Below, piece after piece: positions 1-33,296 of a DNA stretch of 64,000 bases (its first letter is position 1; each line of letters opens with the position of its first letter). Origin of the DNA: Planctomycetota bacterium (GTDB taxonomy: Bacteria; Planctomycetota; GCA-002687715; CAIWVZ01); the NCBI GenBank assembly GCA_044222185.1, contig JBGANV010000005.1, forward strand, positions 320,001-384,000, given 5' to 3'. The notes beneath the pieces were generated by a model that was not told the origin of the DNA, searched no databases, and saw nothing but the letters and a program-made list of their open reading frames with translations. The position numbers were made by a program, and so were the translations under genes.

Positions 1-6
1 TCCGCC

Positions 7-5900: not shown

Positions 5901-8900
5901 TCAGCGTCCGCCGCGGCGCAAGTCCGCCGAACGCTCGAAGAAGCGCCAGTATGTCGCGAGGAGCGACGCGTCGGGCGGCGGGCAGCGGATTCCAAGACGC
6001 GAGAGTTCAGCCGTCGTCCGAGGACAGGTGACCACGGGTGCATCGGCCGTCGCGTCGCCACCGTCCGCCTCCTCGAGCACGGCGAGAACGGAGTGGAGGT
6101 CGCTCGCTTCGTCCGCGGCCGCGCGCTCGCGCAGCCGTCGCCGCCAGACGTCGAGCGGGACCGCTCGAAGCACGACGCCCATCGCCGCCAGCTCCGCGAC
6201 GATCGCATTCGTCGAGACGGTGGCCGGGTTCATCAGGTGCCAGGGCCCGGACGAACCCGAACCCTCGCCGGCGATCCGCACGATGGCTTTGGCGACGAAG
6301 TCCACGGGCGTGAGATCCACGTCTGCCGGCACCTCGGGAGTGCACCCGAGCTCGACGCAAGCCGCGAACAGTCGATTGACGAAGTCCTCGCGGTTGCATG
6401 CGCCGGTGCGCGAACTTCCCGTGAGCCGCCCCACGCGGTGGATGGTCACGGGGAGGCCGCGCATCCCGGCCGCGCGCACCAGTTCCTCGGCGACCCACTT
6501 GGACTGCGCGTAGCTGCCGGTGACGTCGACGGCGTCCGACAGGGTTGCACCTTCGTCGACCCGGGTGCCTCGACGTGACGGGCAGTCGAAGACGCCGATG
6601 GACGAGACGTGGTGGAGCGGCTTCGCGCGGACGCGCGATGCAAACCGGAGAACCTCGATCGTGCCGCCGACGTTGGTCGGGGCGAGGACGGCGTACGGCG
6701 CGGCGAAGCTCGTGGAACCGCCCGCATGGATGATGGCGTCGCAGTCGGTCGAAAGGCGCTCGTGATGACGTTCATCCAACCCGAAGCGCGGCTCGTCGAG
6801 GCGTCCCACGACGACGTCCACCCGCTCCTCCAGGCCGCTGCAATCCAGCGCGAACCGCGCGAAGGCGGCGTGGAGGCGCGCGAGCCCATCGGCCTGCGAC
6901 GCCGCACGCACGAGACACGCGACACGCGCCGTCGTCGCTTCGAGCAGTTCGCGCAGCACGAATGCACCGAGGAAGCCCGTCGCGCCGGTGACGAACGGGA
7001 ACATGAGGCGAGGTCCGGCGTCAGTCCTCGGCGGCGCCGCCACGACGTCGTCCGGCAACACGACCGCGGCACGGAGGTCGACGCCGGGCGTCGGCGCGAC
7101 CGGCGTTCCGGTCACGCCACGCTCCAACAGCGAGGCGAGCCCCGAGACCGTCGGGTGATCGAACAGCTGGCGCAGGAGCACACGCGAACCCGTCGCTTCG
7201 CGGAGCGCTGCCACCACCCGAAGGGCTGCCAGCGAATGGCCTCCCAGCGAGAAGAAACTCTCGTGCCGCGCCGGCAACGCGCACCCCAGCGCCCGTGAGA
7301 ACGCCCGCGCCACGGTCCGCTCGACTTCGCTGAGCGAACCGTCGTCGTGCGTCGATCGCGAGAGTGCCGACGGGGCACGCGCCAACGCCCTCCGGTCGAT
7401 CTTGCCGGTGACCGTGATCGGAAAGGCGTCCAACACGAGGACCTCCGCGGGGACGGACGCGGCTGGAAGCTGCGCCGACAGTCGCCCGCGGATTCCGTCC
7501 GGCGTCGCCGGAACGCCCTCGCGCACGATGCAGCAGGCGCGCAAGGACACCTCGCGCTCCGCCGAAGCCACGGCGACCACGACCGCGTCCGCGATCGACG
7601 GATCCGTTCGCAGGAGCGCCTCGACCTCGCGCGGCTCCACGCGGTGACCACGGATCTTCACCTGGTCGTCGATGCGCCCGAGCCATTCCAGTTGGCCGTC
7701 GGGTCGCCAGCGCACGCGATCCCCCGTCTCGTACGCACGCGCGCCCGGCTCGCCGATGAAGGTGTCCGCAACGAATGACGTGGCCGTCGCGGCGGGGTCG
7801 TTCCAGTAGCCGCGCGCCACGCCGCGGCCGCCCAGATACAACTCGCCGACGGCGCCGACCGGTGCGGGTGATCCCACGTCATCCAACACCCAGGCGCGGA
7901 CGCCGGGGAGAGGCCGCCCGATGGGGATGGCGTCGTCCGGGACGTGCGGGCCGGCCGTCAGGTCGGAGAGCGTCGCCACGATCGTGCCCTCCGTGGGCCC
8001 GTACGTGTTGACGAGGCGCACGCGACTCCCGACGACGTCACGCCAGGCGCGGACGGCCTGCGGCGATGCCGCCTCGCCCCCGAGGATCACGAGGCGCACG
8101 GAATCGGGCACCGAGCAGTCCCCCAATGGCAGCGCGCGGACAAGCTCGTGCCAGTACGACGTGGGAAGGTCGAGCACGGTGATCCTCTCGGCCGCCACGC
8201 GAATCCAGAACTCGCACGGGTCGAGCGGCCATCCGTCGTCGCGGATCACGAGCGTCGCGCCGGCCACGAGCGTGCACCAGATCTCCTCGGCACTCGCATC
8301 GAACCCGGTGGACGCGAACTGGAGGACTCGGTCGCCGCCCTCCAACGCGAACGAGGCGCGCGCGGTCGCCACGTAGGAAGCGAGGCCGGCGTGCGTCAGC
8401 TCGACGCCCTTGGGTTCGCCCGTAGTCCCGGACGTGAAGTAGATGCACGCCGGTTCCGTGAGCCCGTCGGTTGCGCGGGGCACCGCTCGCACGACCGATG
8501 CGCCCGGGGGTGCATCCAGGTACGCCACGCGGAACTCGCCGCCGATCGCCCCGCGCGACGCCCTGGGCGCGAGGATCAACGCCGGCGCAAGACGCGCCAG
8601 CAAGACCTGCTGCCGCGCGAGCGGCCAGCTGGGATCGAGCGGGACCGCGACGCGTCCGACTTGCCAGACGGCCAGCATCGCCGCCGCGAAGTCGGCCGAC
8701 CGGCCCAGCGTCACCGCGACGGGTCCAGGCTCGGGCGACGCGACCTCGATCAGCCTCGTGATCTCGTCGACGCGGGCGAGGAACGCGCGTCCGCTCGTTC
8801 GCGAACCGCGATCCTCGACGATCGTCGCGTCGGGGGCCCGCGAGCACCGGCGCATCACGGCGGTCACGAGGTTCTCCCCCGGCAGAGCCGGCCCTCCGTC

Positions 8901-11900
8901 GGCGAGCGCACGCCACCGAGAAAGCCCATCGCCCGTCAACACCCCGATCGAGCCCACGCGGCGGGCTGGATCCGCGGCGAATGCCCGCAGGACCTCCTCC
9001 ACCTGCTCCAGCACGCCGTCCCCGATGCGCCCATCGACCCTGGCCGGATCGAACTGGACGCGGAGCTCCCACGCCTCGCCCGGGACGGCGACGAACGTGA
9101 CCGGATAGCTCGTCTGCTCCCGCGCGATCGTTCGCAGGACCGAGATCCCCTCCGGCGTCGTGCCGGCGGCGCGATCGATGGGGTAGTTCTCGATCACGAC
9201 GAGGCTGTCGAAGGGAGCCCGACCGAGCGGCATGCCAGCCGCTCGCTGGACGTCGCTCATCGGCGTCCAATCGAAGGGTCCAGCCTCCACCTGCTCGTCG
9301 TGGACCGCGCGGATCCAGGAGCCCGCGGGCTCGTCGGCATCGATCCGGACTCGGACGAGCCGCGTGTTGATGAACAACCCGACGCGTTCGTCGAAACCCT
9401 CCACCTCCGGGCTGCGTCCGGAGACGGTGGCGCCGAAGAGCACGTCACGACATCCCGTCCAGGCGGCGAGGACGCGCGCCCATGCCGCCAGGACGACGGA
9501 TGCAGGCGTCGCACGGACCTCCTGCGCGAGCCGCTCGAGCGATCGCGTGGCGTCTCGGTCCAGCCGCATCGTGCGCTCGACGACTCCGCGCGACGCATCC
9601 GCGGGCGCTCCGGCGGGAAGTCGCGGCGGAGGCTCGAATCCGTCGAAGCGCGAACGCCAGAAATCGTGGGCGCGGGCCGAGTCCTGGCGTCCGAGCCAGG
9701 CGATGTAATCACGCACCCGACGCATCGGCGTCGGTCGTGGCGCGCGCGCGAGGCGTCGCCCGTCGTACGTGCGGACGACGTCACGAAGGAGAATCGGCAT
9801 CGACCACCCGTCCAGGATGAGGTGATGCCAGGTGAACACGAGCACGTGCCGGACCTCGCTCGAACGGATCAGCGCGCACCGCAAGAGGGGCGCGCCGTCG
9901 AGCACGAAGCCACGCCGCCGGTCCTCCTCGAGGAAGGCGTCGAGCCGGCTCTCCCAATGGGCCTCCCCCCGCCAATCGAGCTCCACCCACGGGACGTCGG
10001 GCGTCCGGCGGATCAGAAGGCGCGGCTCGGCGAGGCCGTCCGCGATGACGGAGGCGCGCAACATCTCGTGCAAGGACGCCACGTGTTCGAAGCTCGCTCG
10101 GAACGCACCGGCGTCGAGCGGTCCCTCGAGCACGCTCGCGAGCTGTTGGAAGTAGGCGCGGGACTCGGGCTCGAGGAGCGCGTGGAAGTACATGCCCTGC
10201 TGCGTCGACGTGAGGGGCAGCACGTCGGTCAGATCCGGCGCCCTTTCACACACGACGCGCAGCTCGTCCTCGGTGAGTCGGGCCAGCGTGAAATCCGCGG
10301 GCACGAGACAGTCCTTCGGCCGAGTGGCCGCAACCTCGGCGAGCTCGCGCAGGCTCGCGAGCACGTGCTCGCGGAACGCGACCATCGACGAAGGGTCGGA
10401 GACGCCGCAATCGAGGCGCAGCTCGCGAGCCGTACGCCAGACGTTCACTTCCAGCGGATGCGTCGGCCGGTTCGTTGGCCCGCGTGCGACCCGCCCCAGG
10501 TCCAACCCGACGAGCGAAAGCTCCTTCACGTCGCCGGCGGGCGGCGCGACCTCGCCCAGGTCGTTGAAGAGGATTCTCGCCGGCGCGCCGGCGAGCACAC
10601 CGGTCGACGCCAACCCGCGACCGGCACCGCGCGCCGCCCGCAAGGCCGATTTCACCGCGCGCAGCGCCGCGCTTGCGGACGATACACCCGTCACCGAGAT
10701 GCGGTGCACGTCCGTGAGCCAGCCGACGACGTGCGAGAGATCCAGCCCCGTGCCTTCGCGTCCATGGTGCTCGACGTCGACGCTCACCGTCGACGTCGGG
10801 TCGGCGGACGCAAGCGCGTGAACGACGGCCGCGAGGATGACTTCCTCGATCGACGCGTGCGACGCCGCCCGGCCCGCACCTCGCAGCACGGATGCGACGT
10901 CAGCCGGGACGTCGATGCGCACGGGAATCGCGCGCGGCAGATCCAGCACGCGTGACGCGGGGGCGACGGCCGTCGAGGGCTCCGCCCGTTCCGCGAGGCG
11001 CCGCGCATGCTCGGCGTGGGTCGCCGGCCCGCCGGCGTCGAGGGCTCGGATGTCCGGAGATTCGCCACGGACGTCGGTCACGAGCTCGTCGAGGAGGAGT
11101 CTCCAGGAGACACCGTCGACGACCAGGTGATGAGCGATGCAGACGAGTCCGCACATCCGGAGGTCGACGGCGCGGAACCAGATCGCGTGGAGGAGCGGGC
11201 CGTTCTCCACGTCGAGCGACGCGTGGGCCGCATCGACCGCAGTCTGCACGACCCCGACGACGGATTCGACGCCACCCTGAAGCGACCCCAGGTCGCTCCA
11301 CGCGGGCGCGTCGCGATCGACGAACGATTGCGTGACCTCGCCTCCCCGTCGTCGGAAGCGCGCCCGAAGCTGCGGATGCCGTTGAACCAATCGACCGAGC
11401 GCATCGCGCCATCGCCCCGAGCGTGAATCGAACGGCACCTCGAGTCCGACGACCTGGTTCCATTGGTTCGGCTCCGCGAAGCCTTGCGCGAAGAACCAGC
11501 GTTGTATGGGAGTCAGGGGAACGTTCTCGCCGGGGCGTACGTCACGGATTTTCGGCGATGGTGTCTCCTCGCGGGCTGCGAGGGACAGACGAGCGAGTCC
11601 GGCGACGGTCGGATGCTCGAACACGTCGCGCGTCCCCAGAGCGATCCCCTCCGCCCGCGCTCGGCTCACGATGCGTAGACTCGAGATGGAGTCCGCACCG
11701 ATCGCGAACAAATCGTCCGTCACGCCCACGCGTGCGCGACCGAGGACCGCGCCCACGATCCGCGCGAGCTGCGCCTCGCGCGGTGTGCGGGGCTCGACGC
11801 CGTCTCCGACGACGCCGCCCGCGAGATCCATCGACGTCTCGCGCTCGATCCGTGCTCGATCCACCTTGCCGTGAGCCGTGAGCGGCAGCGTATCCACGTG

Positions 11901-14900
11901 CACCACTCGCCGCGGCAGCGCCACGGGCGGCAGCAGGCGCCGCAACCGATCCTGGATCGCCGCGGCATCGAGCCCATCTCCCCGCGTGACCCACGCGACG
12001 AGCTGCGCCTCGCCGTTCGGCGGCCGCGCGACGGCCACCGCGCACCCGCTGGCGCCCGTGGCGTCGCGAATCGCCGCCTCCACCTCGCCCAGCTCGATGC
12101 GATGTCCGCGGAGCTTCACTTGCTCGTCGCGACGTCCGAGAAACAGGAGCGAGCCATCGCGCCGCCAACGACAGACGTCGCCGGTGCGATACAGCCGTGC
12201 GTCTCTCGCCGTGGTGAACGGATCCGGCACGAAGCGGTCGGCCTCCGACGGCTGCGCGTGCAAGTAGCCCTCGGACAGCCCCGCGCCGCCGATCCACAAC
12301 TCGCCCGCGACCCCCATCGGCGCGAGGTGGCGGTCGTCGTCCAGCACCCAGGCGCTCACGCCTCGCATGGGGCGCCCGATCGGCACCGTGCCATCCGGTG
12401 CACAGTCCCCCCGCGAGACCTCGTGCGCGAGGCATCCGACCACGGCCTCCGTCGGGCCGTACTCGTTGAAGACCCGCGCGCCCGTCGCGTCCATCCACGA
12501 GATCGCGGAGGCGTGGGGCAGGGCTTCGCCGCCCACGACGAGCACGCGGGTCCAGTGGCGGCAGTCCTCGATTCCACGGATCGCCGCGAGCGCGTCCAGG
12601 TGGGACGGGGTGAGCTTCACGAACGACAGGTCGCGGTGACGACGCATGGAAACGATCAGCGGCTCGATCCCCTCGCCGTCGACGACGAACACGGTCCTGC
12701 CGCAGACGAGAGGTACGAAGAGACTCGTGATCGTGAGGTCGAAGCCCAGGGATGTCACGAGGGGCGCGCCCACCCCGTCCGCGCCGCCATAGAGGCGCGA
12801 GGCGTTCTCGACGTAACGAAGCAACCCGCGGTGGCCGACGACGACGCCCTTCGGCCGACCGGTCGACCCGGACGTGAACATCACGTAGGCCGCGTCGTCC
12901 GGCGCCACGGCCGGGAGCGGAGCGCCGAGGTCGGTGATCGGTTCGCCCACGCCGTGGACGCCTGCGAATGCTCCCAAGGCGAACTCGGCGCAGGTCGCGG
13001 GATCCGAGCCGATGACTGCCCTGGGCCCACTCGCGTTCGCGATGCGCGACCGCCGCTCCTGCGGATAGGAAGGGTCGAGAGGCACGAACGCAGCGCCGGC
13101 GCGCATCGCGGCGAGCACGGCAATGACACATTCGACCGACCGCGGCAGGTCGACCAGCACGCGATCGCCGCGGCAGACGCCGGCCTCGCCCAATCGACGC
13201 GCCAGTGCGCCCGAGCGTCGCCACAGTTCGTCGAACGTGACGTCACCCTGCGAAGACGAGATGGCTACCGCGCTCGCGCGTGACGCGCAGACGCGTCCGA
13301 TCACGTCCAGGATCGTCTCCGAGGAAACCGGCGCTTCCTCGCCTCGCGAGAACCCCACGAGTCGCCGTTGCTCATCAGCGCCCACGTGGCACGCGTCCTC
13401 CACGGCACGGTCCGGCGCCGCGAGCGCGGCCTCGATGAAGTGCACCCAGCGTGCCTGCCATGCGTGGATCGTGTCGTCGTCGAACAGGTCGGCGTTGAAG
13501 ACCCAGGTCGACGTCCCGGCGGCGTCGTCGGCGACGAACACGGTCAGATCGAATCGGGCGGGAACACGACCCGGCGACAGGACGCACACCTCGCATCCCT
13601 CGATGGTGAGCGCCCCGAGCGGCGCGGCCCATGCTTCGAACGCGACCTGGAAGATGGGCGTGCGAGTCAAATCGCGGGGCGGCTCGATCGCACGCACGAT
13701 GCGATCGAACGGCACGTTCCGATGATCGATCGCGAAGGCCAGCACGCGCATCGCCTCGCTCACGAGGTCGCGGAACGACCGGTCCGGCGCCGGCCGCAGG
13801 CGAAGCGGCAGCGTGTCGACGCAGAAGCCGACGAGGTCATCGTCATCGCCTGGCCGCCGGCTCGAAACGGACGTGCCCAGCACGAGATCGTCGACGCCGG
13901 CCGCCCGCCCCATGACGACCGCGAACGCGGCGAGGCCCAATGCGAACGGCGTCGCGCCGAGCTCGGCGGCGACCTCTTGCAACCGGGCCGCGACCACGGC
14001 TCCCAGCGCGACGCGGATCTCGCGCCCACGATCCGTCTGGAACGCCGGGCGCCGACGATCGAGGGGCAGATCGAGTTGCAACGGAGCACCGGCGAGTTCT
14101 CCGACCCACGGCGCGGGGTCGGCATCATCCGCGCCCATCGCGTGCCGCGCGAAGCTCGCGAACGATGGTGCGGGAGGCAAGTTTGGCACCTGCTTCGCGC
14201 GCATCGCCGCCGTGAGCGCGGCCAGCTCGCGCGCGAGCACGCCGATGGAGGTGCCGTCCGTGACGAGGTGATGCTGCGTCACGACGACCACGTGGTCATC
14301 CGCCGCGATGCGGAGGCACACGACCCGCAGCAGAGGTCCGGACTGCAGGTCGAATGGCCGCGACGCCTCGGCGGCGATCTCGTGGTCGAGCTGCGTCGGA
14401 TCGATCGCGGCCTCGCGCCACGAGCAACTTTCGCTGGCGTCGATCCGAGCTGCGAATTCGCCGTCGCGAGCCTCCACCCGGAGACGCAGGGCATCGTGGC
14501 GCACGACGAGAGCATCCCACGCACCATGCAGGATCGAGGTGTCCAGAACGCCGCGCACGCGGACGACCGACTGGACGCCATAGGTCGTCGAGCCCGGGTG
14601 CAGCCGGTCCAGGAACACGAGCCTGCGTTGCGCCGCGGTGAGGGGCACGATCGCCAGGTCCCCGCCCGACCCATCGGCGGCACGCGGCGTCGGCGTGCGA
14701 TCGCGCAGGCCTTCGATCAGCCGGGCCAACGCGCCGACGGTGGGCGCGGCGAAGAACGATCGCATGGGCAGATCGACACCGAATCGTTCGCGCGCGAGGT
14801 ACTTGATGCGGGTCGCGCCCAGCGAATGGCCTCCCAGCCGGAAGAAGTCGGCGTCGCGAGCGACGACCGCGTCTTTCGGGAGCACGGACTTCCACCAGCC

Positions 14901-21462: not shown

Positions 21463-24400
21463 GCAGGGCCTCCGGAGCGCGGCGCCGAGCCGCGATCGAG
21501 GAGAGCTTCTACCGCCGCCACCTGTGCGCGCAACGCGGCAGCGAGGTCGTCGATCGACGTGGACGCCGCGGGCGGCATCTCCGCCGGCTGCGCCACGGGG
21601 CGCGTCGCCGGAGCCGCCTGATCGATCCTGCGTTCGATGGCCTCGAGCAGGGACTCGACGTCCGGGTGGTCGAACAACAGCGTCGTTGCCAGGCGACAGC
21701 GCAGTTGGGATTCCAGCCGGTTGCGGAATTCGACGGCGAGAAGTGAGTCCACGCCCAGGTCCGCGAAACGCCGCGTGGGATCCAGCTCCAGCGGTTTCTG
21801 GAAACCGAGCACGCGACCGAGTTGCTCTCCGACGAAGCGATGGAGCAGTCGTCGACGATCGTCGCCGACGGCCGCGAGGACCTGCGCACCGAGCCCGTCG
21901 GCCGCAGGCGAGCCGCCCGCAGGCGCTCGCTCGCCGGCGACGGCGCCGTCGACGACCTCCAGGAGCGGCAGGATCGCGGGAGGCGCCGCGGAGCGCAGCC
22001 GGGTCCAATCGACGTCGAGCACGGCCACGTTCGCGGCATCGCCACCGATCACTCGAGCCATGGCGTCGAACGCCGCGGACGCGTCCAGCATCCCGATGCC
22101 GCTCGCCGAGAACCGGGCCCGGTTGCGATCGGCGACCGCGCTCGCCATTCCGCCGCCGCCGATGGGGCCGAACGCGACGGCCGTCGCCGGAAGCCCCGCG
22201 GTTGCGAACGCGGACGCCAGCGCATCGGCGGCAGTGTTCGCGCAGGCGTACGGCGCCTGGCCGGCCGAACCCAGGAGCCCGGACTGAGACGTGAAGACCA
22301 CGAGCGACTCCACCGGCTCGCCGCGAAGCGCGTCGCGCAGGTTCCAGAACCCGTCGATCTTCGAGGCGAGAACGGGGGGGAACCGCTCCGGGTCGAGCCC
22401 GACCAGCATGCCGTCGTCGACGACGCCGGCGAGGTGGAATGCGCCGACGATGGGGACGTCGCCCTTCAGCGCCGACATCTCCGTGATGAGTTTGCGGCGG
22501 TCGGCCACGTCGGCGACGACGACACGAACGACGACACCGCGGGCCCCGAGCGCGTCGATGAGAGCGCGGACCTCCGGCGCGGGTTCGCGACGCGCCACCA
22601 GCACGAGGCTCCGTGCGCCGCGATCGGCGAGCCACGTTGCGAGGCGCAGCCCCAGGCTGCCCGTCCCGCCGGTGATGACGTAGGCGCCGTCCGAACGTAC
22701 ATCACGCAGAGCGCCGGGCGACGACCCGGTCCGTTCGTCGAGCCGCAAGACCACCTTGCCCACCGAGCGACCGTGGGCAAACGCGCGCAGCACCTTCGGA
22801 GCGAGCGTCACGTCGCAAACCGTCACGCGCGGCGGAGCCCACTCTCCCCTCGCGAACCGATCGAGGAGCCGTTCGAGACGACGGCGCTGGAGGGCCGGAT
22901 CGCCCGCCGCGGCCTCCGCCTGCTCGACCACGTGGTAGGCGACGTCCGGGCGGACCTGCCTGGCCTTCTCGGGGCTCCAGATTCCGAGCTTGCCGATCTC
23001 GATGAACCGGCCCCGCGGTGCGAGGCAACGGAAGCTCGCATCGATCGCGTCCCCCGCGAGGCAGTTGAGCACGACGTTCACGCCGCGTCCGCCAGTGGCG
23101 GTGAGGATCCTCTGGCGGAAGGTCGTGTCGCGCGACGAGTAGACGTGTTCGATTCCCTGGCGGCGGAGAAGCGGGACCTTCGCCGCCGACGCCGTCGCGA
23201 GGACGATCGCGCCCGCGCGGCGCGCGACGGCGATGGCCGCCTGCCCGACGCCGCCGGCCGCCGCGTGGATCAAGACGGTCTCGCCCGATTTCAGCTGCGC
23301 CAACTCTTCCAACGCCACGACGGCCGTGAGGTACGTGGTCGGGATCGCCGCCGCGTCGGTGAACGACAACGCACCCGGAAGCGCGAACACCTGCGAACGG
23401 TCGACCGTCACTTCCGACGCCAGACATCCGACCGTCGACACCAGCACCCGGTCGCCGATCGCAACACCTGCGCATCCCGCGCCAACCTCGCTCACGACGC
23501 CCGCGGCCTCGTAACCAAGCGGTGCGCCCTCGGCTGACGCGATCCCGAGGGTTTCGTGGAATGGTCGCATGGACCCCAGCACCGTGAGGCCGTCGCGGAA
23601 GTTCAGACCAGCGGCCGCAAGCGTCACTCGGACCTCGCCGTCCCGCGGCGCTCGTCTGGGGACCGGCGCGAGGTGGAGGCCGTCGAAGTCACCGTAGGAC
23701 GAAAGTTGCAACCGCCATGGGCCGTCCGGCCGCTGGAGGCGGTCTCGGCCGGCCTTGGGAGCGCGCTCGAGACGAGGCGCGAAGCGCAGCCCGGCCCGAC
23801 GCGCGATCTGGCATCCGTCATCGGAGGCCAGCGCCTCGCGCAGCACGAGGCCAGCTTCGTCCTGTTCGACGAACGGATCCAGGTCCAGATGAAGGGGGAC
23901 GAGGTCCGGGTGCTCGTGGGCGACGACCGTCGTGAATCCCGCGAAGAGCGCGCCCTCGGGATCGACGACGGGCGTCACGTCGTCGACGGCCCTGGTGCCG
24001 CGTGTGACGAAGATCAGTCGTGCCGCGTCAGACCCCAGACGTGCGAGGGCACGCGTGGCGAGGGTCGCGATCGTGCAGAGCTCGCGACGGCGCGACGCAT
24101 CCGGCGCAGCGAAGGCGAACCCGCCGCCGTCGAGGCCCCGCAGGATCACGGCGCGCGCTCGCGGCGCCTGGATCGCGGCGAATTCTCCGATTGCCGAACC
24201 GATCCGCTCGAGATTCGCGCCCGCCGCGACCTCCGTGACGGCGGCGCCCCGCTCCCGTAGTTGCGTCGAAAGCCTGGTGCCCAGCCCGCTCGCATCGTCG
24301 ATCACGAGCCAGCTCTCGCCGTCGAGCTTCGCTTCGCCCGTCACCGCGGCGACTTCGTGCCAGCGGGTGAAGCGGACGAGATCCGTGTTTGCGGTCGCCG

Positions 24401-27400
24401 GCGGCTGGAAGCGCTCGCGCACCGCCGGCCGAAGCTTCAAGCCCGTCAGGGTGACGTCGCCGGAGCCGTCGCCCGCGACGAATGCGACGCGCGCCACGCG
24501 CACCGCCGAGTGAACCGTCGCCGAGTCCATGTCGACGCGGACGCGTGCACGCGATCCGAGATTGCCCCGCACCACGATGCTTCCGATCGAGATCGGCAGC
24601 CACGGCTGGGTCTCCTCCAGGCCCAACGCCGCGACGACGGTCTGCAAGCCGCCGTCCACGAGCGCCGGGTGAGCCGAAAACCCCGCCGGCGAGCCCGCCT
24701 CCGCGGGGAGTTCGAGGCGCGCATCGGAGGCATGCTGCGCCGTCGCGAGCTCGCGCACGGATCGGAAGGCCGGCCCGTACTCCAGTCCACGCGCCAGGAG
24801 CTCCCGGTCGAACGCCTCGAGATCACACGGAACGGCGTCCGTCAGACCGGTGAGTTCGGCGGTCCCCGCACCCACCGAACGGCTGATGCGTGCGCGCACG
24901 TGCGTCGTCCACGGCGATGGCTCGGAGCCTCCGATCGGCTGCGAGACGACGGCGACCTCGCGCTCGCCGCTCTCGAGGCGCCGCACGACGGTCTGTATCG
25001 TCGATTCGCCAGCGAGCCGAAGGGGTGCCTCGATGTTGAAGTCCTCGAGAACCACGTCGCCGGCACCATCGGTGCGACGCACGGCGGAGACGCACAGCTC
25101 GATGAATCCCGCGGCCGGAAACACCACCGCGCCGAAGACCCGGTGGTCGGCGAGCCAGCGCGGGCTCTCCCGCGAGACCGTGGTCGTGAACACGCGAACG
25201 TTCGCATCGATGGCGACGGATCGGATCTCGGTCCCGAGCAGATCCGCGGTCGCATCGGCCGCGGCGCCGCGAAGGGTCTGCCGTGGCGGGAACCAGAACC
25301 TCTCGCGCGCGAAGGGCGTCGTCGGCAGTGCGACGCGATGCCGCACCGGATCCCGGGCAACGCGCGCCCAGTCGACGGGCGCGCCTGCGAGGAACAGCCG
25401 CGCGCACGCATCCGCGACGTCGCCGCGATCGTCACCGGCGGTGCGGAGAGGCGAGATCCATCGGATGTGCGCGCCGCCGAGAAATGCCTTCGCCATGGAC
25501 GTGAGCGTGGGCTTCGGCCCGATCTCGACGGCCACCGTGGCACCCATCTCGGCCACCCGCTGCATGGCAGCATGGAAGCGCACGGCCGAACGGAGCTGCT
25601 CGAGCCAGTACTCGGGTGTCGCGAAGACCGACGCATCGGCGTCTGGCGCGGCGGTCGAGACGATGGGCGTCGTCGCGCGGCCAAACGAGACGGCTGACAG
25701 CTCGCGCCGGAACGGTTCGATCACCGGATCCATCAGCGGCGAGTGGAACGCATGCGAGACGTCGAGGCGGCGATTGGGCAGCCGGCGACGATCGAGCTCG
25801 AGAACGATCCGGTCGATCGCCTCGAGGCTTCCCGATACGACGACCGAGCGCGGGCCGTTCATCGCGGCGACGGCGGCGCGGTCGCGAAGCGGCTGAACGA
25901 GCGGGGCGACGTCCTCCAGGGCGGCCGACACGGCAACCATGGCGCCTTCAGGCGACAGCTGACGCATCAAGCGGCCACGCGCCGCCGCGAGTCGCAGCGC
26001 ATCCTCGATCGTGAAGACGCCGGCCCGCGCCGCCGCGGCGAATTCGCCGATGCTGTGCCCGAGCATCACCGAGGGCTCGATGCCGAAGCTCGCCAGCAGC
26101 TCGGCGAGTGACCACTCGAACGCGACGAGCGCCGGCTGGGTGATCTCGGTCGCGGATAGCTGGTCAGACCGGGCTCCCCACAGGAAATCCGTGAGTGGCG
26201 CCGGGATCTCGTTTCGAAGGATCCGGCTGCACCGCTCGATCGCGTCGCGAAACACCTCGAACGTTCGGTGAAGTTCGCGACCCATGGACGCGTACTGCGA
26301 CCCCTGCCCGGTGAAGAGCCATGCGACCTTGGGTGGCGTCGATGCCACGCACGCAGCGTCGTCGGATCCGGACGTGGAAGCCAGAGCCTGCATGAACGTC
26401 TGCAGATCGTGCTGGGACCGGACGACTCGCGCCGCTCGCACCGGCTGCGGGGCACGGCCTGCCGCGAGCGTGAAGCACGTCGCGCCGACGTCCACCGGGC
26501 CGCGACTCACGACTTCCAGGAGGTTCGATGCGGTGGTGCGGAGTCGATCGCGCGTGGGGGCGGAGACGACGGCGACGAACGGTCCCGCGTCGTCCGCCAC
26601 GGGCTGAGCCGCGGCGTCTGCCGGGGACTCACCGATGACGATGTGACAGTTCGTTCCGCTGAAACCGAACGAGCTGATGCCGGCGACGCGCGGCCCGCCG
26701 GACCCGGGCCAGGCGACTGTGGCGCGCGGGATCGCGATCGGCATGCGCGACCAGGCGATGTGCGGGCTGGGCTCTTCGCAATGGAGGTGCCCCGGGATGA
26801 CGCCATTTCCCACGACCTGGACCGCGCGTATGAACCCGGCGATCCCGGCGGCGGTCTCCAGGTGGCCCAGGTTCGTCTTCACGGACGCGACGAGGAGCGG
26901 CCGCCCCGGCGGGCGCGAATCCGAGAACACGGCGTCGAGCGCGTTGATCTCGATGGGATCGCCGAGCGCCGTCCCCGTGCCGTGGGCCTCGATGAATCCT
27001 ACGGCCGCCGGTGTCAGGCGCGCGTCCTCGAGGGCGGCGCGAATCAACCGTTCCTGGGCGATGCCGTTGGGCATCGTGAGTCCGCCGCTCGCTCCGTCCT
27101 GGTTGACGGCGGAACCGAGGATGACCGCGAGGACCGAATCGCCGTCGCGCCGCGCATCCGACAGGCGCTTCAAGTACACGAGGCCGCAGCCCTCGCCGCG
27201 ACCGTAGCCGTCGGCCGCGGCCGAAAACGTCTTGCACCGCCCGTCGGGCGCGAGCATGTTCGCTTGTGAAAGTGCGATCGACGACAGCGGGTCGAGCATC
27301 AAGCTGACGCCGCCCGCGAGCGCCGCGCGGCACTCGCCGGCGCGCAGGCTCCGCACCGCGAGATGGATGGCGACGAGTGAGCTCGAGCACGCGGTGTCGA

Positions 27401-28277
27401 GGGCGATCGCAGGACCCGTCAACCCGAGCGTGAACGCGATCCGGCCCGCGGCCGTCGAGAGTGCATTGCCCGTGGCGTAGTAGGTCGACACGTCCGGCGG
27501 CGCGCGGTTCGTCTGGGAATTGAAATACTCCGATTCGCGGAGTCCGATGAAGACGCCCGTCTCCGAGCCTGCGAGCGACGACGGGGCGTGACCCGAGCGC
27601 TCGATCGCTTCCCACGCGATCTCGAGGAGGAGGCGCTGCTGCGGATCGAGCTGCGACGCCTCGCGTGGGGAGATCTTGAAGAACGCGGCATCGAAGCGGT
27701 CGACACCGGCGATGAACCCGCCGGAGCGGCAGCAGGTCTTTCCGGGAGCGCCGCGGACGGGGTCGAAGATCGCCGCGACGTCCCAGCGGTCCGCGGGAAC
27801 GTCGACGATGCCGTCGCGCCCATCGAGCTGCATCTGCCAGAACGCCGACGGATCATCCGCGCCGCCGGGAAATCGGCACGCCATCCCGACGACGGCGACG
27901 GGATCGTCGACCAGTTGCGTGTTTGCGGGCGCGTCCTTCGCGGTCGACGGGTCCGGCGCGTTGCATCCCATGACGTCGGCGAGCGCGTCCGCGAGCTTCG
28001 CCGGAGTCGGGTAATCGAATACGAGCGTCGTGCGAAGCGCGGCGCCCGTGAGTGGCTCGAGGCGGGTCTTGAAGTCGACGGCTTGCGACGAGTCGAAGCC
28101 GAAGTCCTGGAACGTCCGCGCCGGATCGATGGCGTCCCCCTCGCGCATCCCGAGGAACGCCGTCATCTCGACGGCGAGCAGTCCCAGGATCCGCTCCCGT
28201 GCTGCGGCTGGCGCCAGTCCACGCAGAGACTCAGCCCACCGGGCTGCGGGGCTGGCGGATCCCGCTTCGTCCGTCAT
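21459..28277 (-). CDS. Type I PKS ACP-KS-AT(malonyl)-DH-ER-KR-ACP (2272 aa)
   Basis: N-terminal ACP FGFDS. KS DTACSSS/HGTGT/GHLETAAG. AT GHSIG and HAFH. DH HRVFGAVVFP. ER LIHAAAGGVG. KR GGTGSLG, VDD, YACAN. ACP LGVDSL. Confidence 0.95.
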   Translation of the reverse strand: MTDEAGSASPAARWAESLRGLAPAAARERILGLLAVEMTAFLGMREGDAIDPARTFQDFGFDSSQAVDFKTRLEPLTGAALRTTLVFDYPTPAKLADALADVMGCNAPDPSTAKDAPANTQLVDDPVAVVGMACRFPGGADDPSAFWQMQLDGRDGIVDVPADRWDVAAIFDPVRGAPGKTCCRSGGFIAGVDRFDAAFFKISPREASQLDPQQRLLLEIAWEAIERSGHAPSSLAGSETGVFIGLRESEYFNSQTNRAPPDVSTYYATGNALSTAAGRIAFTLGLTGPAIALDTACSSSLVAIHLAVRSLRAGECRAALAGGVSLMLDPLSSIALSQANMLAPDGRCKTFSAAADGYGRGEGCGLVYLKRLSDARRDGDSVLAVILGSAVNQDGASGGLTMPNGIAQERLIRAALEDARLTPAAVGFIEAHGTGTALGDPIEINALDAVFSDSRPPGRPLLVASVKTNLGHLETAAGIAGFIRAVQVVGNGVIPGHLHCEEPSPHIAWSRMPIAIPRATVAWPGSGGPRVAGISSFGFSGTNCHIVIGESPADAAAQPVADDAGPFVAVVSAPTRDRLRTTASNLLEVVSRGPVDVGATCFTLAAGRAPQPVRAARVVRSQHDLQTFMQALASTSGSDDAACVASTPPKVAWLFTGQGSQYASMGRELHRTFEVFRDAIERCSRILRNEIPAPLTDFLWGARSDQLSATEITQPALVAFEWSLAELLASFGIEPSVMLGHSIGEFAAAARAGVFTIEDALRLAAARGRLMRQLSPEGAMVAVSAALEDVAPLVQPLRDRAAVAAMNGPRSVVVSGSLEAIDRIVLELDRRRLPNRRLDVSHAFHSPLMDPVIEPFRRELSAVSFGRATTPIVSTAAPDADASVFATPEYWLEQLRSAVRFHAAMQRVAEMGATVAVEIGPKPTLTSMAKAFLGGAHIRWISPLRTAGDDRGDVADACARLFLAGAPVDWARVARDPVRHRVALPTTPFARERFWFPPRQTLRGAAADATADLLGTEIRSVAIDANVRVFTTTVSRESPRWLADHRVFGAVVFPAAGFIELCVSAVRRTDGAGDVVLEDFNIEAPLRLAGESTIQTVVRRLESGEREVAVVSQPIGGSEPSPWTTHVRARISRSVGAGTAELTGLTDAVPCDLEAFDRELLARGLEYGPAFRSVRELATAQHASDARLELPAEAGSPAGFSAHPALVDGGLQTVVAALGLEETQPWLPISIGSIVVRGNLGSRARVRVDMDSATVHSAVRVARVAFVAGDGSGDVTLTGLKLRPAVRERFQPPATANTDLVRFTRWHEVAAVTGEAKLDGESWLVIDDASGLGTRLSTQLRERGAAVTEVAAGANLERIGSAIGEFAAIQAPRARAVILRGLDGGGFAFAAPDASRRRELCTIATLATRALARLGSDAARLIFVTRGTRAVDDVTPVVDPEGALFAGFTTVVAHEHPDLVPLHLDLDPFVEQDEAGLVLREALASDDGCQIARRAGLRFAPRLERAPKAGRDRLQRPDGPWRLQLSSYGDFDGLHLAPVPRRAPRDGEVRVTLAAAGLNFRDGLTVLGSMRPFHETLGIASAEGAPLGYEAAGVVSEVGAGCAGVAIGDRVLVSTVGCLASEVTVDRSQVFALPGALSFTDAAAIPTTYLTAVVALEELAQLKSGETVLIHAAAGGVGQAAIAVARRAGAIVLATASAAKVPLLRRQGIEHVYSSRDTTFRQRILTATGGRGVNVVLNCLAGDAIDASFRCLAPRGRFIEIGKLGIWSPEKARQVRPDVAYHVVEQAEAAAGDPALQRRRLERLLDRFARGEWAPPRVTVCDVTLAPKVLRAFAHGRSVGKVVLRLDERTGSSPGALRDVRSDGAYVITGGTGSLGLRLATWLADRGARSLVLVARREPAPEVRALIDALGARGVVVRVVVADVADRRKLITEMSALKGDVPIVGAFHLAGVVDDGMLVGLDPERFPPVLASKIDGFWNLRDALRGEPVESLVVFTSQSGLLGSAGQAPYACANTAADALASAFATAGLPATAVAFGPIGGGGMASAVADRNRARFSASGIGMLDASAAFDAMARVIGGDAANVAVLDVDWTRLRSAAPPAILPLLEVVDGAVAGERAPAGGSPAADGLGAQVLAAVGDDRRRLLHRFVGEQLGRVLGFQKPLELDPTRRFADLGVDSLLAVEFRNRLESQLRCRLATTLLFDHPDVESLLEAIERRIDQAAPATRPVAQPAEMPPAASTSIDDLAAALRAQVAAVEALLDRGSAPRSGGPA

Positions 28278-28873
28278 GTCGCCGCCGGTGCGTCGCTGCC
28301 GGATCGGCGAGCCGAGACGGCGCCCGTGGTCCTGCGATCGACGATCGCGAGCGTCACCTCGCCCTGCGCGAGTCCGCCCGCGTCATCGCGGAACCGGCAG
28401 CTGGTCCGCAGGAAGATGAAACGCCCGCGACTGGAGACGTGGTCGATTCGGACCTCGCCGACGAATCGGTCCGGCGAAAGTTGCCGCTTGAAGACGCTGG
28501 AGAACTCGTGGATCAGCACGTCGGGAAGTTGGCGGCGACGGTACTCGTCGATCGTCATGTCGCTGAGCGACGGGACGAGCTTGCTCACCACGCATTGCGC
28601 CATCAGCACGTAGACGAGCTGGTTGTAGCAGATGTTGAATTCGACGGAGTTGAAGTGCCCCGTGGCGTCGATGTAGCAGGACTCGGGGATCGAGAACTCT
28701 CCGGACGCGCGCGCCAGCGCCACGGGGTCGAGCGTGAAGTCGTCGGGCTGGACGTGCGGAACGTCGACGACGGCCGAGCGCAGGTAGCGACACTCCGGGC
28801 GATAGGGCGCGAGGATCGACGCGAGGAGGTCGGGTTCGACCACGATCCGCGGACCATTGGGGGGGAGCGACAC
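28274..28873 (-). CDS. fcoT: FcoT/ScoD-family thioesterase (glycine Michael addition in isonitrile biosynthesis)
   Basis: FSIPESCYIDATGHFNSVEFNICYNQ signature of the FcoT (Rv0098)/ScoD family. GAGGTG RBS. ATGA overlap with PKS1. Confidence 0.88.
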   Translation of the reverse strand: MSLPPNGPRIVVEPDLLASILAPYRPECRYLRSAVVDVPHVQPDDFTLDPVALARASGEFSIPESCYIDATGHFNSVEFNICYNQLVYVLMAQCVVSKLVPSLSDMTIDEYRRRQLPDVLIHEFSSVFKRQLSPDRFVGEVRIDHVSSRGRFIFLRTSCRFRDDAGGLAQGEVTLAIVDRRTTGAVSARRSGSDAPAAT

Positions 28874-28881
28874 GGATCACC

Positions 28882-29739
28882 TCACTTCGGGTAGAACGGC
28901 AGGCCGTCGTAGATGCCGATGCGGAAGCTGACGCTGGGTTCTCCATGGAGGCTCGAGCCTGCCATGTGGAGAAGCGGGCGGTTGTCCCACAGGAGCACGT
29001 CGCCCGCACGCCACGTGTGCGTGTGCACGAACCGCGGCTGCTCCGCGAATGCCGTGAGCTGCGACAGGGCCTCCGTCGAGGCTTCGTGCGACAGCCCCGC
29101 GAAACCGACGGTGAATCCGGAACTGACGTAAAGACTCGGGGCGCCGGTGACGGGATGCCGGATGACCGTCGGGTGCGTCACGGGCGGAGCCATCTTCGTG
29201 AACTCCTCCATGAGTTCGAGGAGTGACTTGTCGACGTCACAGGGCTGAACCTTGTATCGCAGCTTGGCGTCGTGGATCGCCCGCGTGCCGTCGGCGAACG
29301 CGCGCAGCGCCGGTGGCAGTTCGCGATAGACGCGCGCCATGTCGATGTAACGGGTCTCGCGACGCGTTTCGGGCAGCGTGTGCGGATGCAGCATCGTCAG
29401 CGGCAGCGGGTCGTCGAAGAACTGGCAGTCGGTGTGCCAGTATCGGCCGGTGCCCGCAACGCCGATCTTCTTGCCGTCGAGCGGAACGTTGGCGGAGACG
29501 AAGACCTCGGGATGATCGGGGTGATGGTAGTTGGGCTGGAAGTAGATCTGCGGAGTCCCGAACTGCTTCGCGCAGGCGACGTACTCGGTCAGCGTCAGCG
29601 TCTGATCCCGAAAGACGATCAGCTTGTGCGCGTAGAGAGCGGCCTTCGCTTCCGCCAGCTCGGAGGCGGTCATCCGGCGGACGTCGACCCCGGTGATCTC
29701 GCTGCCGATGTCGTCTGGCGGTGGCGGTTGGATCCTCAT
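28882..29739 (-). CDS. scoE: ScoE-type Fe(II)/2-oxoglutarate isonitrile synthase (TauD fold)
   Basis: HxD (WHTD), WDNR..H and distal Arg (SFRI). The segment Y..P.Y.HP...E.FVS.NVP..GK.IGV..TG..WH.D matches ScoE as I recall it. Adjacent to fcoT. Confidence 0.85.
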   Translation of the reverse strand: MRIQPPPPDDIGSEITGVDVRRMTASELAEAKAALYAHKLIVFRDQTLTLTEYVACAKQFGTPQIYFQPNYHHPDHPEVFVSANVPLDGKKIGVAGTGRYWHTDCQFFDDPLPLTMLHPHTLPETRRETRYIDMARVYRELPPALRAFADGTRAIHDAKLRYKVQPCDVDKSLLELMEEFTKMAPPVTHPTVIRHPVTGAPSLYVSSGFTVGFAGLSHEASTEALSQLTAFAEQPRFVHTHTWRAGDVLLWDNRPLLHMAGSSLHGEPSVSFRIGIYDGLPFYPK

Positions 29740-29925
29740 GGACCTGTGCTTTCTCGTTGGTCTCGCGGGTCGGTCGATTGTAGGGGTTGGTCAGGGGCTC
29801 GGCGAGGGCCCGCGATGCGGTGGCCGAAGCGCGACGCATGCGCGTTCCACGGCGCCGTCGTGGTAGAACCCGCGCGCCGGCCCGGATTCGGGTGCGGCCG
29901 TCGTCGACCGCGCGGAGCCAGATCG
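29740..29925. promoter_or_regulatory. Divergent promoter region between scoE-like operon and acyl-AMP ligase
   Basis: 186-bp divergent intergenic region. Minus strand: TACAAT (29782-29777) with TCGCCG 17 bp upstream. Plus strand: TGGTAGAA at ~29861 resembling an extended -10. Confidence 0.45.
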
Positions 29926-31503
29926 GTGCCAACGGATCCATCCACCACGACCTTGTCCGAGCTGATCCGCGCGCAGGCGCAGGTTCGCGGAGACCGGATC
30001 GCGCTGATCGTCGGTGCGAGAACCGTGAGCTTCCGCGACCTGAACGCGTCGGCGGACCGCGTCGCGTCCGCCCTCACGAGATGTGGCTGCGGCAGAGGCA
30101 CGCGCGTGGCGGTCCTCGCCCGCGACTCGGAGATCACATTCGCGATCCTGTTCGGCGCAGCCCGCGTCGGCGCCGTGCTCGTGCCGATCAACTGGCGGCT
30201 GACGGCGCCGGAGATCGGGTTCATGCTCGAGGACTCGCAGGCACGGATTCTCTTTCTCGACGCGGAGTTTTCGGCGCGCGTTGCCGCGACCGTCGGGCCG
30301 ACGGCCGCGCCGATCCATCGTGTCGTCCTGTACGGAGCAACCGACGACGCCGCGAGTTTCGATGCGTGGGTCGCACGATCGGCGCCCCCGGCGAACGTGC
30401 CGGAACCCACGCCCGACGACGTGGCCGTGCAGATGTACACCTCGGGCACGACGGGGAACCCAAAAGGCGTCCTCCTTCCCCACCGGAGCCTGTTCGCCGT
30501 GATGCGCTCGCTGCACGCGCACGGGGATCCGTGGATCGGTTGGTCGGACCGCGACGTGGGACTGCAGGCACTCCCGTCGTTTCACATCGGCGGGCTGTGG
30601 TGGGCCGTGACGACGCTCTTCGTCGGCGCGACGAACGTCGTGCTGCCGGCGTTCGCCGGCTGGCAGGCCCTCGACCTCATCGCGCGCCACCGGGTGACGA
30701 AGACCTGCTTCGTCCCGTCGATGATCCAGTTGATGCTCGCGGAGCCGAACGCTGCCACGGCCGACGTCTCGTCGCTCGACACCGTCGTCTACGGAGGCTC
30801 GCCCATTCCGACGACGCTGCTCGAACGCGCGCTCGCACGATTCCGCTGTCGGTTCTTCCAGATCTACGGCCTGACGGAGACGGGCAACACGGCCGTGTGC
30901 CTGCGTCACGAGGATCACGTGGGGCCCGAGCCGAGCCGGCGACTGGCGGCGGGCCGCCCTTACCCCGGCGTCGACGTGAAGTGCGTAGATGCGAGCGGTG
31001 CGACTCTGCCGCCGGGCGCCATCGGCGAAATCTGCATCCGATCGCCGGCGAACATGATCGGCTACTGGAATCGCCCCGACGCCACGCGGGATACGCTGCG
31101 GGACGGGTTCGTCCACACGGGCGACGCCGGAACCATCGACGCCGACGGCTACGTGTTCATCTCGGACCGAGTGAAGGACATGATCATCCATGCCGGGGAG
31201 AACGTGTATCCAGCCGAGGTGGAGAACGCGCTGTCGAGTCATCCGGCAATCGCGGAAGTTGCGGTGATCGGGATTCCGGACGAGCGGTGGGGCGAGGCGG
31301 TGAAGGCCCTCGTCGTCCTCGTTCCCGGCGCATCCGTCACGCCGCAGGAACTCGCGCGTCATGCCCGCGCGAGGATCGCCGACTTCAAGGTTCCCAAGTC
31401 CGTGGACTTCGTCACCAGTCTGCCGCGGACTCCGAGCGGCAAGCTCCGCAAGGCGGAGCTGCGCGAACCGTACTGGCGCGGCCGCGAGCGCCGCGTCAAC
31501 TGA
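29926..31503 (+). CDS. Fatty acyl-AMP/ACP ligase (ScoC/FadD10-like), 525 aa
   Basis: YTSGTTGNPKG, YGLTETG, HTGDAG, SGKLRK adenylation motifs. FHIGGLWW is reminiscent of ScoC-type ligases. Start reassigned to GTG 29926 with GGAG RBS. Confidence 0.88.
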   Translation: MPTDPSTTTLSELIRAQAQVRGDRIALIVGARTVSFRDLNASADRVASALTRCGCGRGTRVAVLARDSEITFAILFGAARVGAVLVPINWRLTAPEIGFMLEDSQARILFLDAEFSARVAATVGPTAAPIHRVVLYGATDDAASFDAWVARSAPPANVPEPTPDDVAVQMYTSGTTGNPKGVLLPHRSLFAVMRSLHAHGDPWIGWSDRDVGLQALPSFHIGGLWWAVTTLFVGATNVVLPAFAGWQALDLIARHRVTKTCFVPSMIQLMLAEPNAATADVSSLDTVVYGGSPIPTTLLERALARFRCRFFQIYGLTETGNTAVCLRHEDHVGPEPSRRLAAGRPYPGVDVKCVDASGATLPPGAIGEICIRSPANMIGYWNRPDATRDTLRDGFVHTGDAGTIDADGYVFISDRVKDMIIHAGENVYPAEVENALSSHPAIAEVAVIGIPDERWGEAVKALVVLVPGASVTPQELARHARARIADFKVPKSVDFVTSLPRTPSGKLRKAELREPYWRGRERRVN

Positions 31504-31517
31504 GGACGTCAGAGGGG

Positions 31518-33134: not shown

Positions 33135-33296
33135 GAGCACTCTCCAAAGGACGGCGGACATCCTACGCCTCCCCTGCCCGCCGAATGCAACCGGTGGATG
33201 GTTGAGACGCCGACGTTCCAGCGGTTGAGTTGCCGCCGACGCCTCCGCGTTGCATCTCAGGTGAAATTCGGCGCGGCGACGCGCTTTGGAACCGGA

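Follow-up and report, generated by a model that had tools for sequence, protein, structure and literature searches.

A ScoE/ScoD-like cassette joined to a PKS-PKS-NRPS assembly line in a planctomycete genome: a candidate isonitrile polyketide-peptide gene cluster

Mycobacteria and Streptomyces scavenge copper and zinc with isonitrile lipopeptides (INLPs), and Harris et al. have described the order of events in their assembly: ScoD releases a free glycine adduct, ScoE acts on this free acid, and a ligase then reloads the product. Isonitriles are also found in polyketides, among them a nanomolar anti-staphylococcal antibiotic. In the accessible parts of the published accounts, the clusters for aerocyanidin (aec) and amycomicin (amc) hold homologues of mmaB-E together with polyketide synthase (PKS) genes, and P450s are present. 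The accessible text of Hostetler et al. (2025, PMC11811631) places a ScoE-type enzyme of Halothiobacillus neapolitanus beside an FcoT gene and a PKS, and reports that in vitro this enzyme prefers methyl and propyl substrates. Here we describe a gene cluster at positions 5901-31503 of a 64,000-nucleotide stretch of a Planctomycetota genome (contig JBGANV010000005.1; hereafter the window), in which genes for a ScoE-like oxidase and a ScoD-like protein precede two PKSs and a three-module nonribosomal peptide synthetase (NRPS).

As far as the accessible parts of these sources describe them, what is already known covers the cassette with a single-module NRPS, as in the INLPs, and the cassette with a PKS, as in aec/amc and the uncharacterised H. 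neapolitanus cluster. The original prediction for this locus, made from its letters alone, had proposed a candidate new class; for a cassette beside PKS genes, aec/amc and H. neapolitanus are precedents in print. We consider it reasonably probable that the cluster is an intact biosynthetic gene cluster following the INLP (ScoA-E) plan, with PKS modules and two extra NRPS modules inserted.

The operon and its isonitrile-type cassette

The cluster comprises six intact genes, five on the (-) strand and one, a ligase gene, on the (+) strand. Along the (-) strand the ScoE-like and ScoD-like genes are separated by an 8-nt gap, the ScoD-like gene and PKS1 overlap in ATGA, PKS1 and PKS2 overlap in GTGA, and PKS2 and the NRPS gene overlap by 8 nt. 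The ScoE-like, ScoD-like, PKS1, PKS2 and NRPS genes form one translationally coupled five-gene operon, and the coupled PKS1-PKS2-NRPS operon that had been predicted was recovered with its genes intact and its junctions overlapping. The further claim that the whole cassette sits directly on this operon holds for the FcoT-like (that is, ScoD-like) and ScoE-like genes and fails for the ligase gene, which lies on the opposite strand and diverges from the ScoE-like gene across about 80-200 bp. From our reading of the sequence, the intergenic region between them (29740-29937) is presumed to be a promoter region.

The gene at 28882-29739 (-) encodes a 285-aa protein of the TauD family (PF02668, E 7.9e-48), annotated here as a ScoE-like Fe(II)/2-oxoglutarate oxidase-decarboxylase and putative isonitrile synthase. 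Its ten best PDB matches are isonitrile synthases, led by 6l86 (8.1e-65) and ScoE itself (6dch, 1.2e-63; also 6l6w) and followed by Rv0097-type entries (8e-52 to 1e-49) that are titled [quoted passage not shown]; ordinary taurine dioxygenases come only after these ten, from E 1.7e-32. Similarly, its top NCBIfam model is the ScoE equivalog NF049937 at 267.8 bits, compared with 136.7 for taurine dioxygenase. We collected relatives of the oxidase by a pattern scan with one genome per species, keeping 80 of 135, and annotated the related loci by tblastn with the window's own domains. The iron triad H102/D104/H258 and residues R127, K163, R273, Y66 and Y71 are present in the window protein and invariant in 81 of 81 family rows. 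The last five are the equivalents of ScoE R157, K193, R310, Y96 (the base) and Y101; iron, 2-oxoglutarate, substrate and base residues are named for ScoE and Rv0097 in the accessible parts of PMC11811631, PMC11350588 and PMC12946266.

In a quick maximum-likelihood tree of 82 rows (SH-aLRT support only; locus L049, whose matched stretch contains an in-frame stop, was left out), the window oxidase falls in a 13-row Planctomycetota clade with SH-aLRT 94, and 11 of these 13 rows are PKS-linked. Outside the oxidase family, E. coli TauD forms a very long branch; the TauD and Streptomyces clavifer rows are both long branches of unsure placement, and ScoE, AecA, AmcA and the H. neapolitanus enzyme are not among the rows of the tree. 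Taken together, PDB ranking, NCBIfam scores, tree and conserved residues place the oxidase, by sequence, with the ScoE/Rv0097-type isonitrile synthases and not with ordinary TauD enzymes or hydroxylases, as had been predicted.

The same evidence bears on a plainer explanation, an ordinary lipopeptide cluster in which a TauD-family enzyme hydroxylates, for example, Asn, the FcoT-like protein is an editing thioesterase, and neither a glycine adduct nor an isonitrile is made. Pfam names the two proteins only "TauD" and "FcoT-like thioesterase", module 2 of the NRPS is read as activating Asn, and TauD-superfamily Asn/Asp hydroxylases exist. However, no NRPS-pathway amino-acid beta-hydroxylase is found among the 34 PDB matches of the oxidase, where the ScoE family stands about 100 bits ahead of the others; furthermore, the ScoE-specific substrate residues are conserved, the pairing of ScoE-like with ScoD-like genes is strict, and E. 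coli TauD branches far outside the family. We judge this explanation very unlikely, and the amino-acid hydroxylase reading of the oxidase was rejected on PDB ranking and residue conservation.

The second cassette gene (28274-28873, -) encodes a 199-aa candidate enoyl-ACP glycyltransferase/thioesterase of the ScoD/FcoT type (PF10862, E 1.1e-54). The top NCBIfam model is the ScoD equivalog NF049938 (158.1 bits), and the PDB matches are 5wsy (2e-36; also 5wsx) and Rv0098 (2pfc, 1.6e-23), which bears out the ScoD-like assignment made earlier. The host genome has no other FcoT-family gene, and the ScoE-like gene is likewise single-copy. In 74 of 79 related loci the gene immediately after the ScoE-like one is ScoD-like, and the remaining five have less than 500 bp of contig beyond the ScoE-like gene; the pairing is not due to chance. 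Co-occurrence with FcoT was also the basis on which Hostetler et al. (PMC11811631) called 365 isonitrilases, according to the accessible part of their report.

In the substrate pocket of the oxidase, positions P2-P3 are Gly-Phe in all 81 rows, as in the short-chain ScoE, and in the Srug enzyme a Gly-to-Phe change at P3 moved the preference towards short chains. The starter would therefore be short, and a PKS would be needed to gain length.

The divergent gene (29938-31503, +; start at GTG 29938 or ATG 29818, open reading frame (ORF) 29272-31503) encodes an acyl-activating ligase with AMP-binding (E 1.6e-89) and AMP-binding_C domains, a candidate equivalent of ScoC. An INLP-type cluster on a Streptomyces clavifer plasmid (NZ_CP107794.1, 315770-334597; locus L101) reads KASIII-ACP-TauD-FcoT-ligase-PCP-NRPS(C-A-T-R); its ligase and that of the window share 48% identity over 522 aa, the full length of the window protein. 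Homologues adjoin the ScoE/ScoD pair in 46 of 80 related loci (15 divergent, 31 co-directional), and we therefore count the ligase as part of the cassette. The protein had been called an acyl-AMP ligase, a label that the sequence comparisons do not support: its best family is PRK06187, long-chain-fatty-acid-CoA ligase, whose cut-off of 476 bits it passes with 569.9, and its best PDB matches are FadD13 and feruloyl-CoA synthetase, with FadD10 seventh at 3.7e-68. Orthology to FadD10 or to the fatty acyl-AMP ligases is not supported by these matches. A (-) strand ORF on the same DNA (29791-31572) was also tried as the ligase and discarded, having no Pfam match.

A PP-binding domain, here ACP0 for acyl carrier protein, is fused to the N-terminus of PKS1 and occupies the same place in relatives. 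Judged by sequence and position it is likely the ScoB equivalent; among the ORFs of 80 aa or more that were scanned, no free-standing ACP of the ScoB type is evident in the cluster. The earlier description of the locus had left this N-terminal ACP unmentioned.

The assembly line and its predicted product

PKS1 (21459-28277, -) is organised ACP-KS-AT-DH-ER-KR-ACP, with PP-binding matched twice. Its Pfam domains are ACP0 (27978-28205), ketosynthase (KS, 26514-27905), acyltransferase (AT, 25488-26321), dehydratase (DH, 24411-25241), enoylreductase (ER, 22746-23642), ketoreductase (KR, 22161-22688) and the second ACP (21636-21827). PKS2 (17908-21462, -) has a KS (19912-21354), an AT-less linker, a KR (18541-19071) and an ACP (18034-18231). 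The PKS1 translation carries DTACSSS in the KS, GHSIGE and HAFH in the AT, HxxxGxxxxP in the DH and an LDD-type KR; in PKS2 the Cys and both His motifs of the KS are present, the KR is again LDD-type, and the KR2 and ACP2 motifs are intact. We take HAFH to indicate a malonyl-type AT, both KS domains to be condensing, the DH, ER and KR to be intact, and LDD to give the KR type. The domain order of PKS1 and PKS2 predicts one fully reducing and then one beta-hydroxy extension, in agreement with the original prediction.

The NRPS gene (5901-17915, -) encodes C-A-T-C-A-T-E-C-A-T-R, where C, A, T, E and R stand for condensation, adenylation, carrier, epimerase and reductase domains (Pfam Condensation four times, AMP-binding three times, PP-binding three times, and NAD_binding_4). 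Module 1 holds C1 (16491-17828), A1 for Gly (14988-16436) and T1; module 2 holds C2 (13311-14648), A2 for Asn (11841-13283), T2 and E (10251-11513); and module 3 holds C3 (8937-10226), A3 for a basic residue (7386-8873), T3 and R (5943-6995). The third condensation-type domain region has ten PDB matches at E 1e-5 or better (PvdL, bacitracin synthase 3, TycA, TycB, GrsA), all of which we take to be constructs containing an E domain. It is preceded by a carrier domain with a GADSI-type motif, which presumably fits a downstream E domain. By these sequence marks the third condensation-type domain is an epimerase.

To extract the A-domain codes we used a MAFFT alignment with the core motifs as anchors; the codes, DILQLGLIWK, DLTKVGEVGK and DAEDIGTIVK, are read as Gly, Asn and a basic residue. 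The A3 code differs at 2 of 10 positions from the DTEDIGTVVK of the S. clavifer INLP-type NRPS, to which the last module (C-A-T-R) is 33% identical over 1452 aa; in addition, the NCBIfam model of MxcG, with a score of 1515 bits against a cut-off of 2300, spans all of the last module (2670-4094). On the strength of the near-identical code, this identity and the MxcG match, the assembly line therefore ends in a ScoA-like module. The R domain matches the thioester reductase model TIGR01746 at 298.9 bits (cut-off 213) and has a YxxxK motif, presumably that of the reductase. The predicted order of Gly, D-Asn and a basic residue followed by reductive release is thus matched by the A codes, the E domain after Asn and the thioester reductase.

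This ScoA-like ending raises the question of where the isonitrile acid would enter. ScoA-type and MxcG-type modules acylate both Lys amines, and the terminal C-A-T-R with its near-identical A code is homologous to an INLP-type NRPS, so that an ordinary acyl group might prime the PKS while the terminal module places an isocyano-acyl group from ACP0 on the Lys side-chain amine. However, ACP0 is fused directly before KS1, and neither a second free ACP nor an extra C domain is seen; C3 follows an E domain and should take a D-Asn-peptidyl donor, and a single ACP would be required in two roles. We find entry at the side chain quite improbable and retain the isonitrile acid as the PKS starter.

We infer each chemical step of the route below, and the order of the steps, from what was observed, namely which genes and domains are present, which residues are conserved, how the operon is coupled and that the layout recurs. 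The divergent ligase would load a short 2-enoic acid, such as crotonate, onto ACP0; the ScoD-like protein would add glycine at C3 and free an N-carboxymethyl-3-amino acid; the ScoE-like Fe/2-oxoglutarate enzyme would convert this to a 3-isocyano acid; and the ligase would put the latter back on ACP0 as the starter unit. PKS1 would then extend by one malonate with full reduction, and the AT-less PKS2 would add a second malonate and stop at the 3-hydroxy stage, with ACP2 loaded in trans by the PKS1 AT or by a discrete AT. Finally, the NRPS would add Gly, Asn (epimerised to D) and Lys or Orn, and the R domain would free the chain as an aldehyde or amino alcohol. A C4 starter would give 3-hydroxy-7-isocyano-octanoyl as the acyl part. 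We favour this scheme of a short 3-isocyano acid starter, two extensions, Gly-D-Asn-Lys/Orn and reductive release, with somewhat better than even confidence. By analogy with the known diisonitriles, we expect that the product probably binds copper or zinc or acts as an antibiotic. That the pathway works is suggested by the translational coupling, by the motifs of KS, DH, ER, KR and R, all intact, and by an orthologous cluster in another genome (G004, below).

Several points weigh against this scheme, one of them in the oxidase. The histidine of the His-loop (ScoE H299, Rv0097 H264) has been reported to be critical, and its proposed role is to keep the active site closed after the first half-reaction and before the second. 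At the aligned ScoE H299 position the window protein has S262, and in the non-actinobacterial clade the six commonest residues of this column are T, S, K, I, G and D, with no His; among nine rows examined, only Streptomyces clavifer has His there. In addition, both cassette proteins score below their equivalog cut-offs (267.8 against 400 bits for NF049937, 158.1 against 250 for NF049938), and the tree rows hold no validated isonitrile synthase of the non-actinobacterial clade. Isonitrile formation by the window cassette is accordingly a prediction from homology that has to accommodate the missing histidine.

These observations form the case for the main chemical alternative, in which an oxidase of this His-less subfamily carries out only the first half-reaction or lets the imine go, so that the glycine adduct would be turned into an N-formyl group or split into a 3-amino acid and glyoxylate, and the product would be a beta-amino or formamido polyketide-peptide. 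The residue absent from the aligned position in the window and its clade is the proposed guard of the imine in Rv0097. On the other side, all other catalytic and binding residues are invariant, and window H265 lies three residues past S262 in the same loop, whose alignment is uncertain. Furthermore, the accessible part of Hostetler et al. reports isonitrile formation in vitro by Gram-negative and other non-Streptomyces enzymes picked by FcoT co-occurrence. On balance we consider incomplete oxidation unlikely and keep the isonitrile acid as the expected product of the cassette.

The remaining points of this kind concern the assembly line and the surroundings. The ligase resembles CoA ligases, and its loading of an ACP is assumed in our scheme. 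PKS2 lacks an AT, a further correction to the earlier reading: Pfam finds no Acyl_transf_1 in it and an AT query finds one AT in the cluster, so that the rule for modular cis-AT synthases, by which each module has its own AT, does not apply to it. The genome (93.8% complete) has only two AT matches, one being the PKS1 AT and the other a discrete ORF of 314 aa on contig 1, and with no AT in PKS2 we therefore propose that ACP2 is loaded in trans. Domain scans of the window ORFs found no transporter, phosphopantetheinyl transferase or metal-related gene. The meanings given to the A-domain codes and PKS motifs are general ones and not the output of a predictor, and the scheme as a whole is a prediction from sequence.

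A bolder extension of the scheme would have the last module acylate both amines of Lys or Orn, giving two isocyano-hydroxyacyl-Gly-D-Asn chains on one reduced lysine, and would make the His-less cassette a portable "short isocyano starter" across phyla. We hold this to be doubtful. If true, the two-chain product would be a large diisonitrile chalkophore of a new structural type, and a portable starter unit would reach Planctomycetota, cyanobacteria, Bacteroidota and 14 methanotroph loci, making isonitrile copper capture widespread outside Actinobacteria.

Recurrence, host and neighbouring genes

The locus had been presented as a grafted arrangement of a candidate new class. Its layout is instead shared: 12 of 19 Planctomycetota loci read ligase (divergent)-ScoE-ScoD-ACP-KS-AT-DH-ER-KR-ACP-C-A, and in a thirteenth the contig breaks off inside the KS. 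Similar layouts occur in one Sulfurifustaceae and one Bacteroidota locus. We examined the full clusters of five of these genomes (G001-G005), all of which end in T-R. G001-G003, which include the cultured Engelhardtia mirabilis Pla133, have one PKS module followed by C-A-T-C-A-T-R, and in G005 the second A domain was not recovered. G004 has the exact domain string of the window, including the AT-less KS-KR module, at 40-59% identity, and its A codes (DILQLGLIW-, DLTKVGEVGK and DTEDVGTIVK) repeat the Gly and Asn codes of the window. These results demonstrate that the cassette-PKS-NRPS layout is an established family in Planctomycetota and not a one-off.

The G004 cluster is also relevant to whether the window cluster is silent or decaying, with the AT-less PKS2 a dead module and no mature product. 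The missing AT would fit such decay, as would the patchy distribution of the cluster: a ScoE-like gene at E 1e-40 or better is present in 2 of 40 sampled host relatives and in none of the 4 of the same family. But all ORFs are intact and coupled, the KS2, KR2 and ACP2 motifs are preserved, and the AT-less module has been kept in G004 at only 40-59% identity, which therefore points to selection. Of the explanations weighed here, decay seems to us the least probable.

Across the related loci the cassette is always upstream of an assembly line, be it a type I PKS, an NRPS (cyanobacteria, 29 loci) or a KS-like-NRPS (methanotrophs and Bacteroidota, 18 loci), and its position ahead of whichever line follows therefore fits a starter-unit role.

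In cyanobacterial loci (L007-L055), which make up most of the 29 NRPS loci, ScoE-ScoD is followed directly by a multi-module NRPS; hosts of this type include Nostoc, Scytonema, Rivularia and Aetokthonos, and in Okeania, Caldora, Dapis and Trichodesmium PKS genes lie on the other side of ScoE-ScoD. Ligase-ScoE-ScoD also occurs in 14 methanotroph loci (L033, L051, L053, L059, L060, L063, L065, L066, L069, L071, L074, L075, L077 and L078; Methylobacter, Methylocucumis, Methylomicrobium and Methylococcales), mostly followed by an ACP, a KS-like domain of about 30% identity and then C-A. These loci may encode isonitrile copper chelators in copper-hungry hosts; a literature search found no paper linking isonitriles to methanotroph chalkophores. 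Two ScoE-like copies each are present in L033 (3065-4860) and L048 (8195 and 11156).

The host was predicted to be planctomycete-like, and its genome content agrees: it has five PSD1 domains, compared with none in 14 control genomes, and FtsZ_C, present in 13 of 14 controls, was not found in this 93.8% complete genome.

Next to the ligase gene, 31518-38997 (-) holds three paralogous Kelch-propeller genes, at least the first of which has a signal-peptide-like N-terminus. A Kelch homologue of 39-41% identity lies directly after the R domain in G004 (L093, 7249-8805); none was found near the cluster in G001, G002, G003 or G005, and the family is multi-copy in G004. Since both genomes with the three-module NRPS encode Kelch-propeller proteins beside the cluster, these may belong to the system. 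We considered and rejected the idea that they are copper-radical oxidases: the PDB matches are to generic Kelch repeats, and galactose oxidase/GlxA is matched over only about 80-145 residues.

About 4 kb beyond the NRPS gene, at 1-1656 (+), is a gene with an AlgX-like SGNH domain, whose counterpart in G004 (L068, 2091-3266) is 30% identical and precedes the ScoE-like gene there by about 7 kb. We dismissed as cluster members the ORF at 1682-3604 and the genes for DUF6600, PAP2-like and peroxiredoxin proteins, which have no counterpart in related loci at E 1e-8. Farther away, 43112-50430 (-) holds a tandem pair of 1229-aa ORFs, one a subtilase with proprotein-convertase P domains and the other a weak match to the squalene-hopene-cyclase C-terminal domain. 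At 58599-61281 a LanC-like gene (-, E 6.4e-31) overlaps the start of an O-methyltransferase gene (+, E 1.1e-50), and this pair may be a second small biosynthetic locus.

Comparison with described systems

The original prediction knew of no isonitrile hybrid of PKS, NRPS and R domain, and indeed a full-text literature search, with MIBiG and supplements outside its range, found no description of a ScoE-type PKS-NRPS hybrid or of a planctomycete isonitrile. The list of 365 clusters by Hostetler et al. may already include planctomycete hybrids. We also pursued the antiSMASH label "isocyanide-nrp" and dropped it when the papers listed under it proved to concern fungal and lichen genomes, with none on bacterial ScoE-type systems. 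The cluster is real, intact and recurrent; it is no isolated case, and its chemistry is not of a new kind.

Its interest lies in the combination. From the merging of INLP and polyketide logic we predict a scaffold that would be new, a tripeptide aldehyde or alcohol with an omega-isocyano-3-hydroxyacyl chain, in a phylum from which, to our knowledge, very few natural products have been described; the cultured E. mirabilis Pla133, with its one-PKS version, makes the prediction directly testable. Moreover, ScoE/ScoD cassettes of this kind form a distinct subfamily in at least five phyla, with Phe at P3 and without the His-loop histidine, which is relevant both to the gating of the two half-reactions and to the abundance of isonitrile metallophores in nature.

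Like H. neapolitanus, the window combines a PKS with an FcoT gene and a ScoE-type enzyme; the accessible description of the H. neapolitanus cluster does not mention an NRPS or R domain. With aec/amc, as far as their accessible descriptions go, it shares an isonitrile cassette with a PKS and enzymes predicted to prefer short chains. It differs from aec/amc in having a three-module NRPS with an R domain, neither of which is described there, and in that no P450 was found among the window ORFs covered by the domain scans. The myxochelin NRPS MxcG, C-A(Lys)-T-R, resembles the last module in that its model spans the whole of it, whereas the score is below the cut-off and the window module is the last of three, placed after an E domain.

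The closest likeness is to the INLP clusters, that is, ScoA-E of Streptomyces coeruleorubidus, Rv0096-0101/MmaA-E of mycobacteria, and SF2768 and other diisonitrile chalkophores. The S. clavifer example is on a linear plasmid, where its neighbours are an ABC uptake system, the PCu(A)C copper chaperone and a heavy-metal (copper) ATPase of the P-type. For all five core functions of INLP clusters the window has a representative or candidate: a ScoE-like oxidase, a ScoD/FcoT-like protein, an acyl ligase as candidate ScoC equivalent, a carrier protein and a terminal C-A(basic)-T-R. In contrast to INLP clusters, the window carrier is fused to the PKS with no free-standing ScoB evident, and the single-module NRPS is replaced by two PKS and two NRPS modules (Gly, D-Asn) ahead of the last module. 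Furthermore, the ligase does not resemble FadD10 most closely, the subfamily of the oxidase is a separate, non-actinobacterial one that lacks the His-loop histidine, and the host is a planctomycete.

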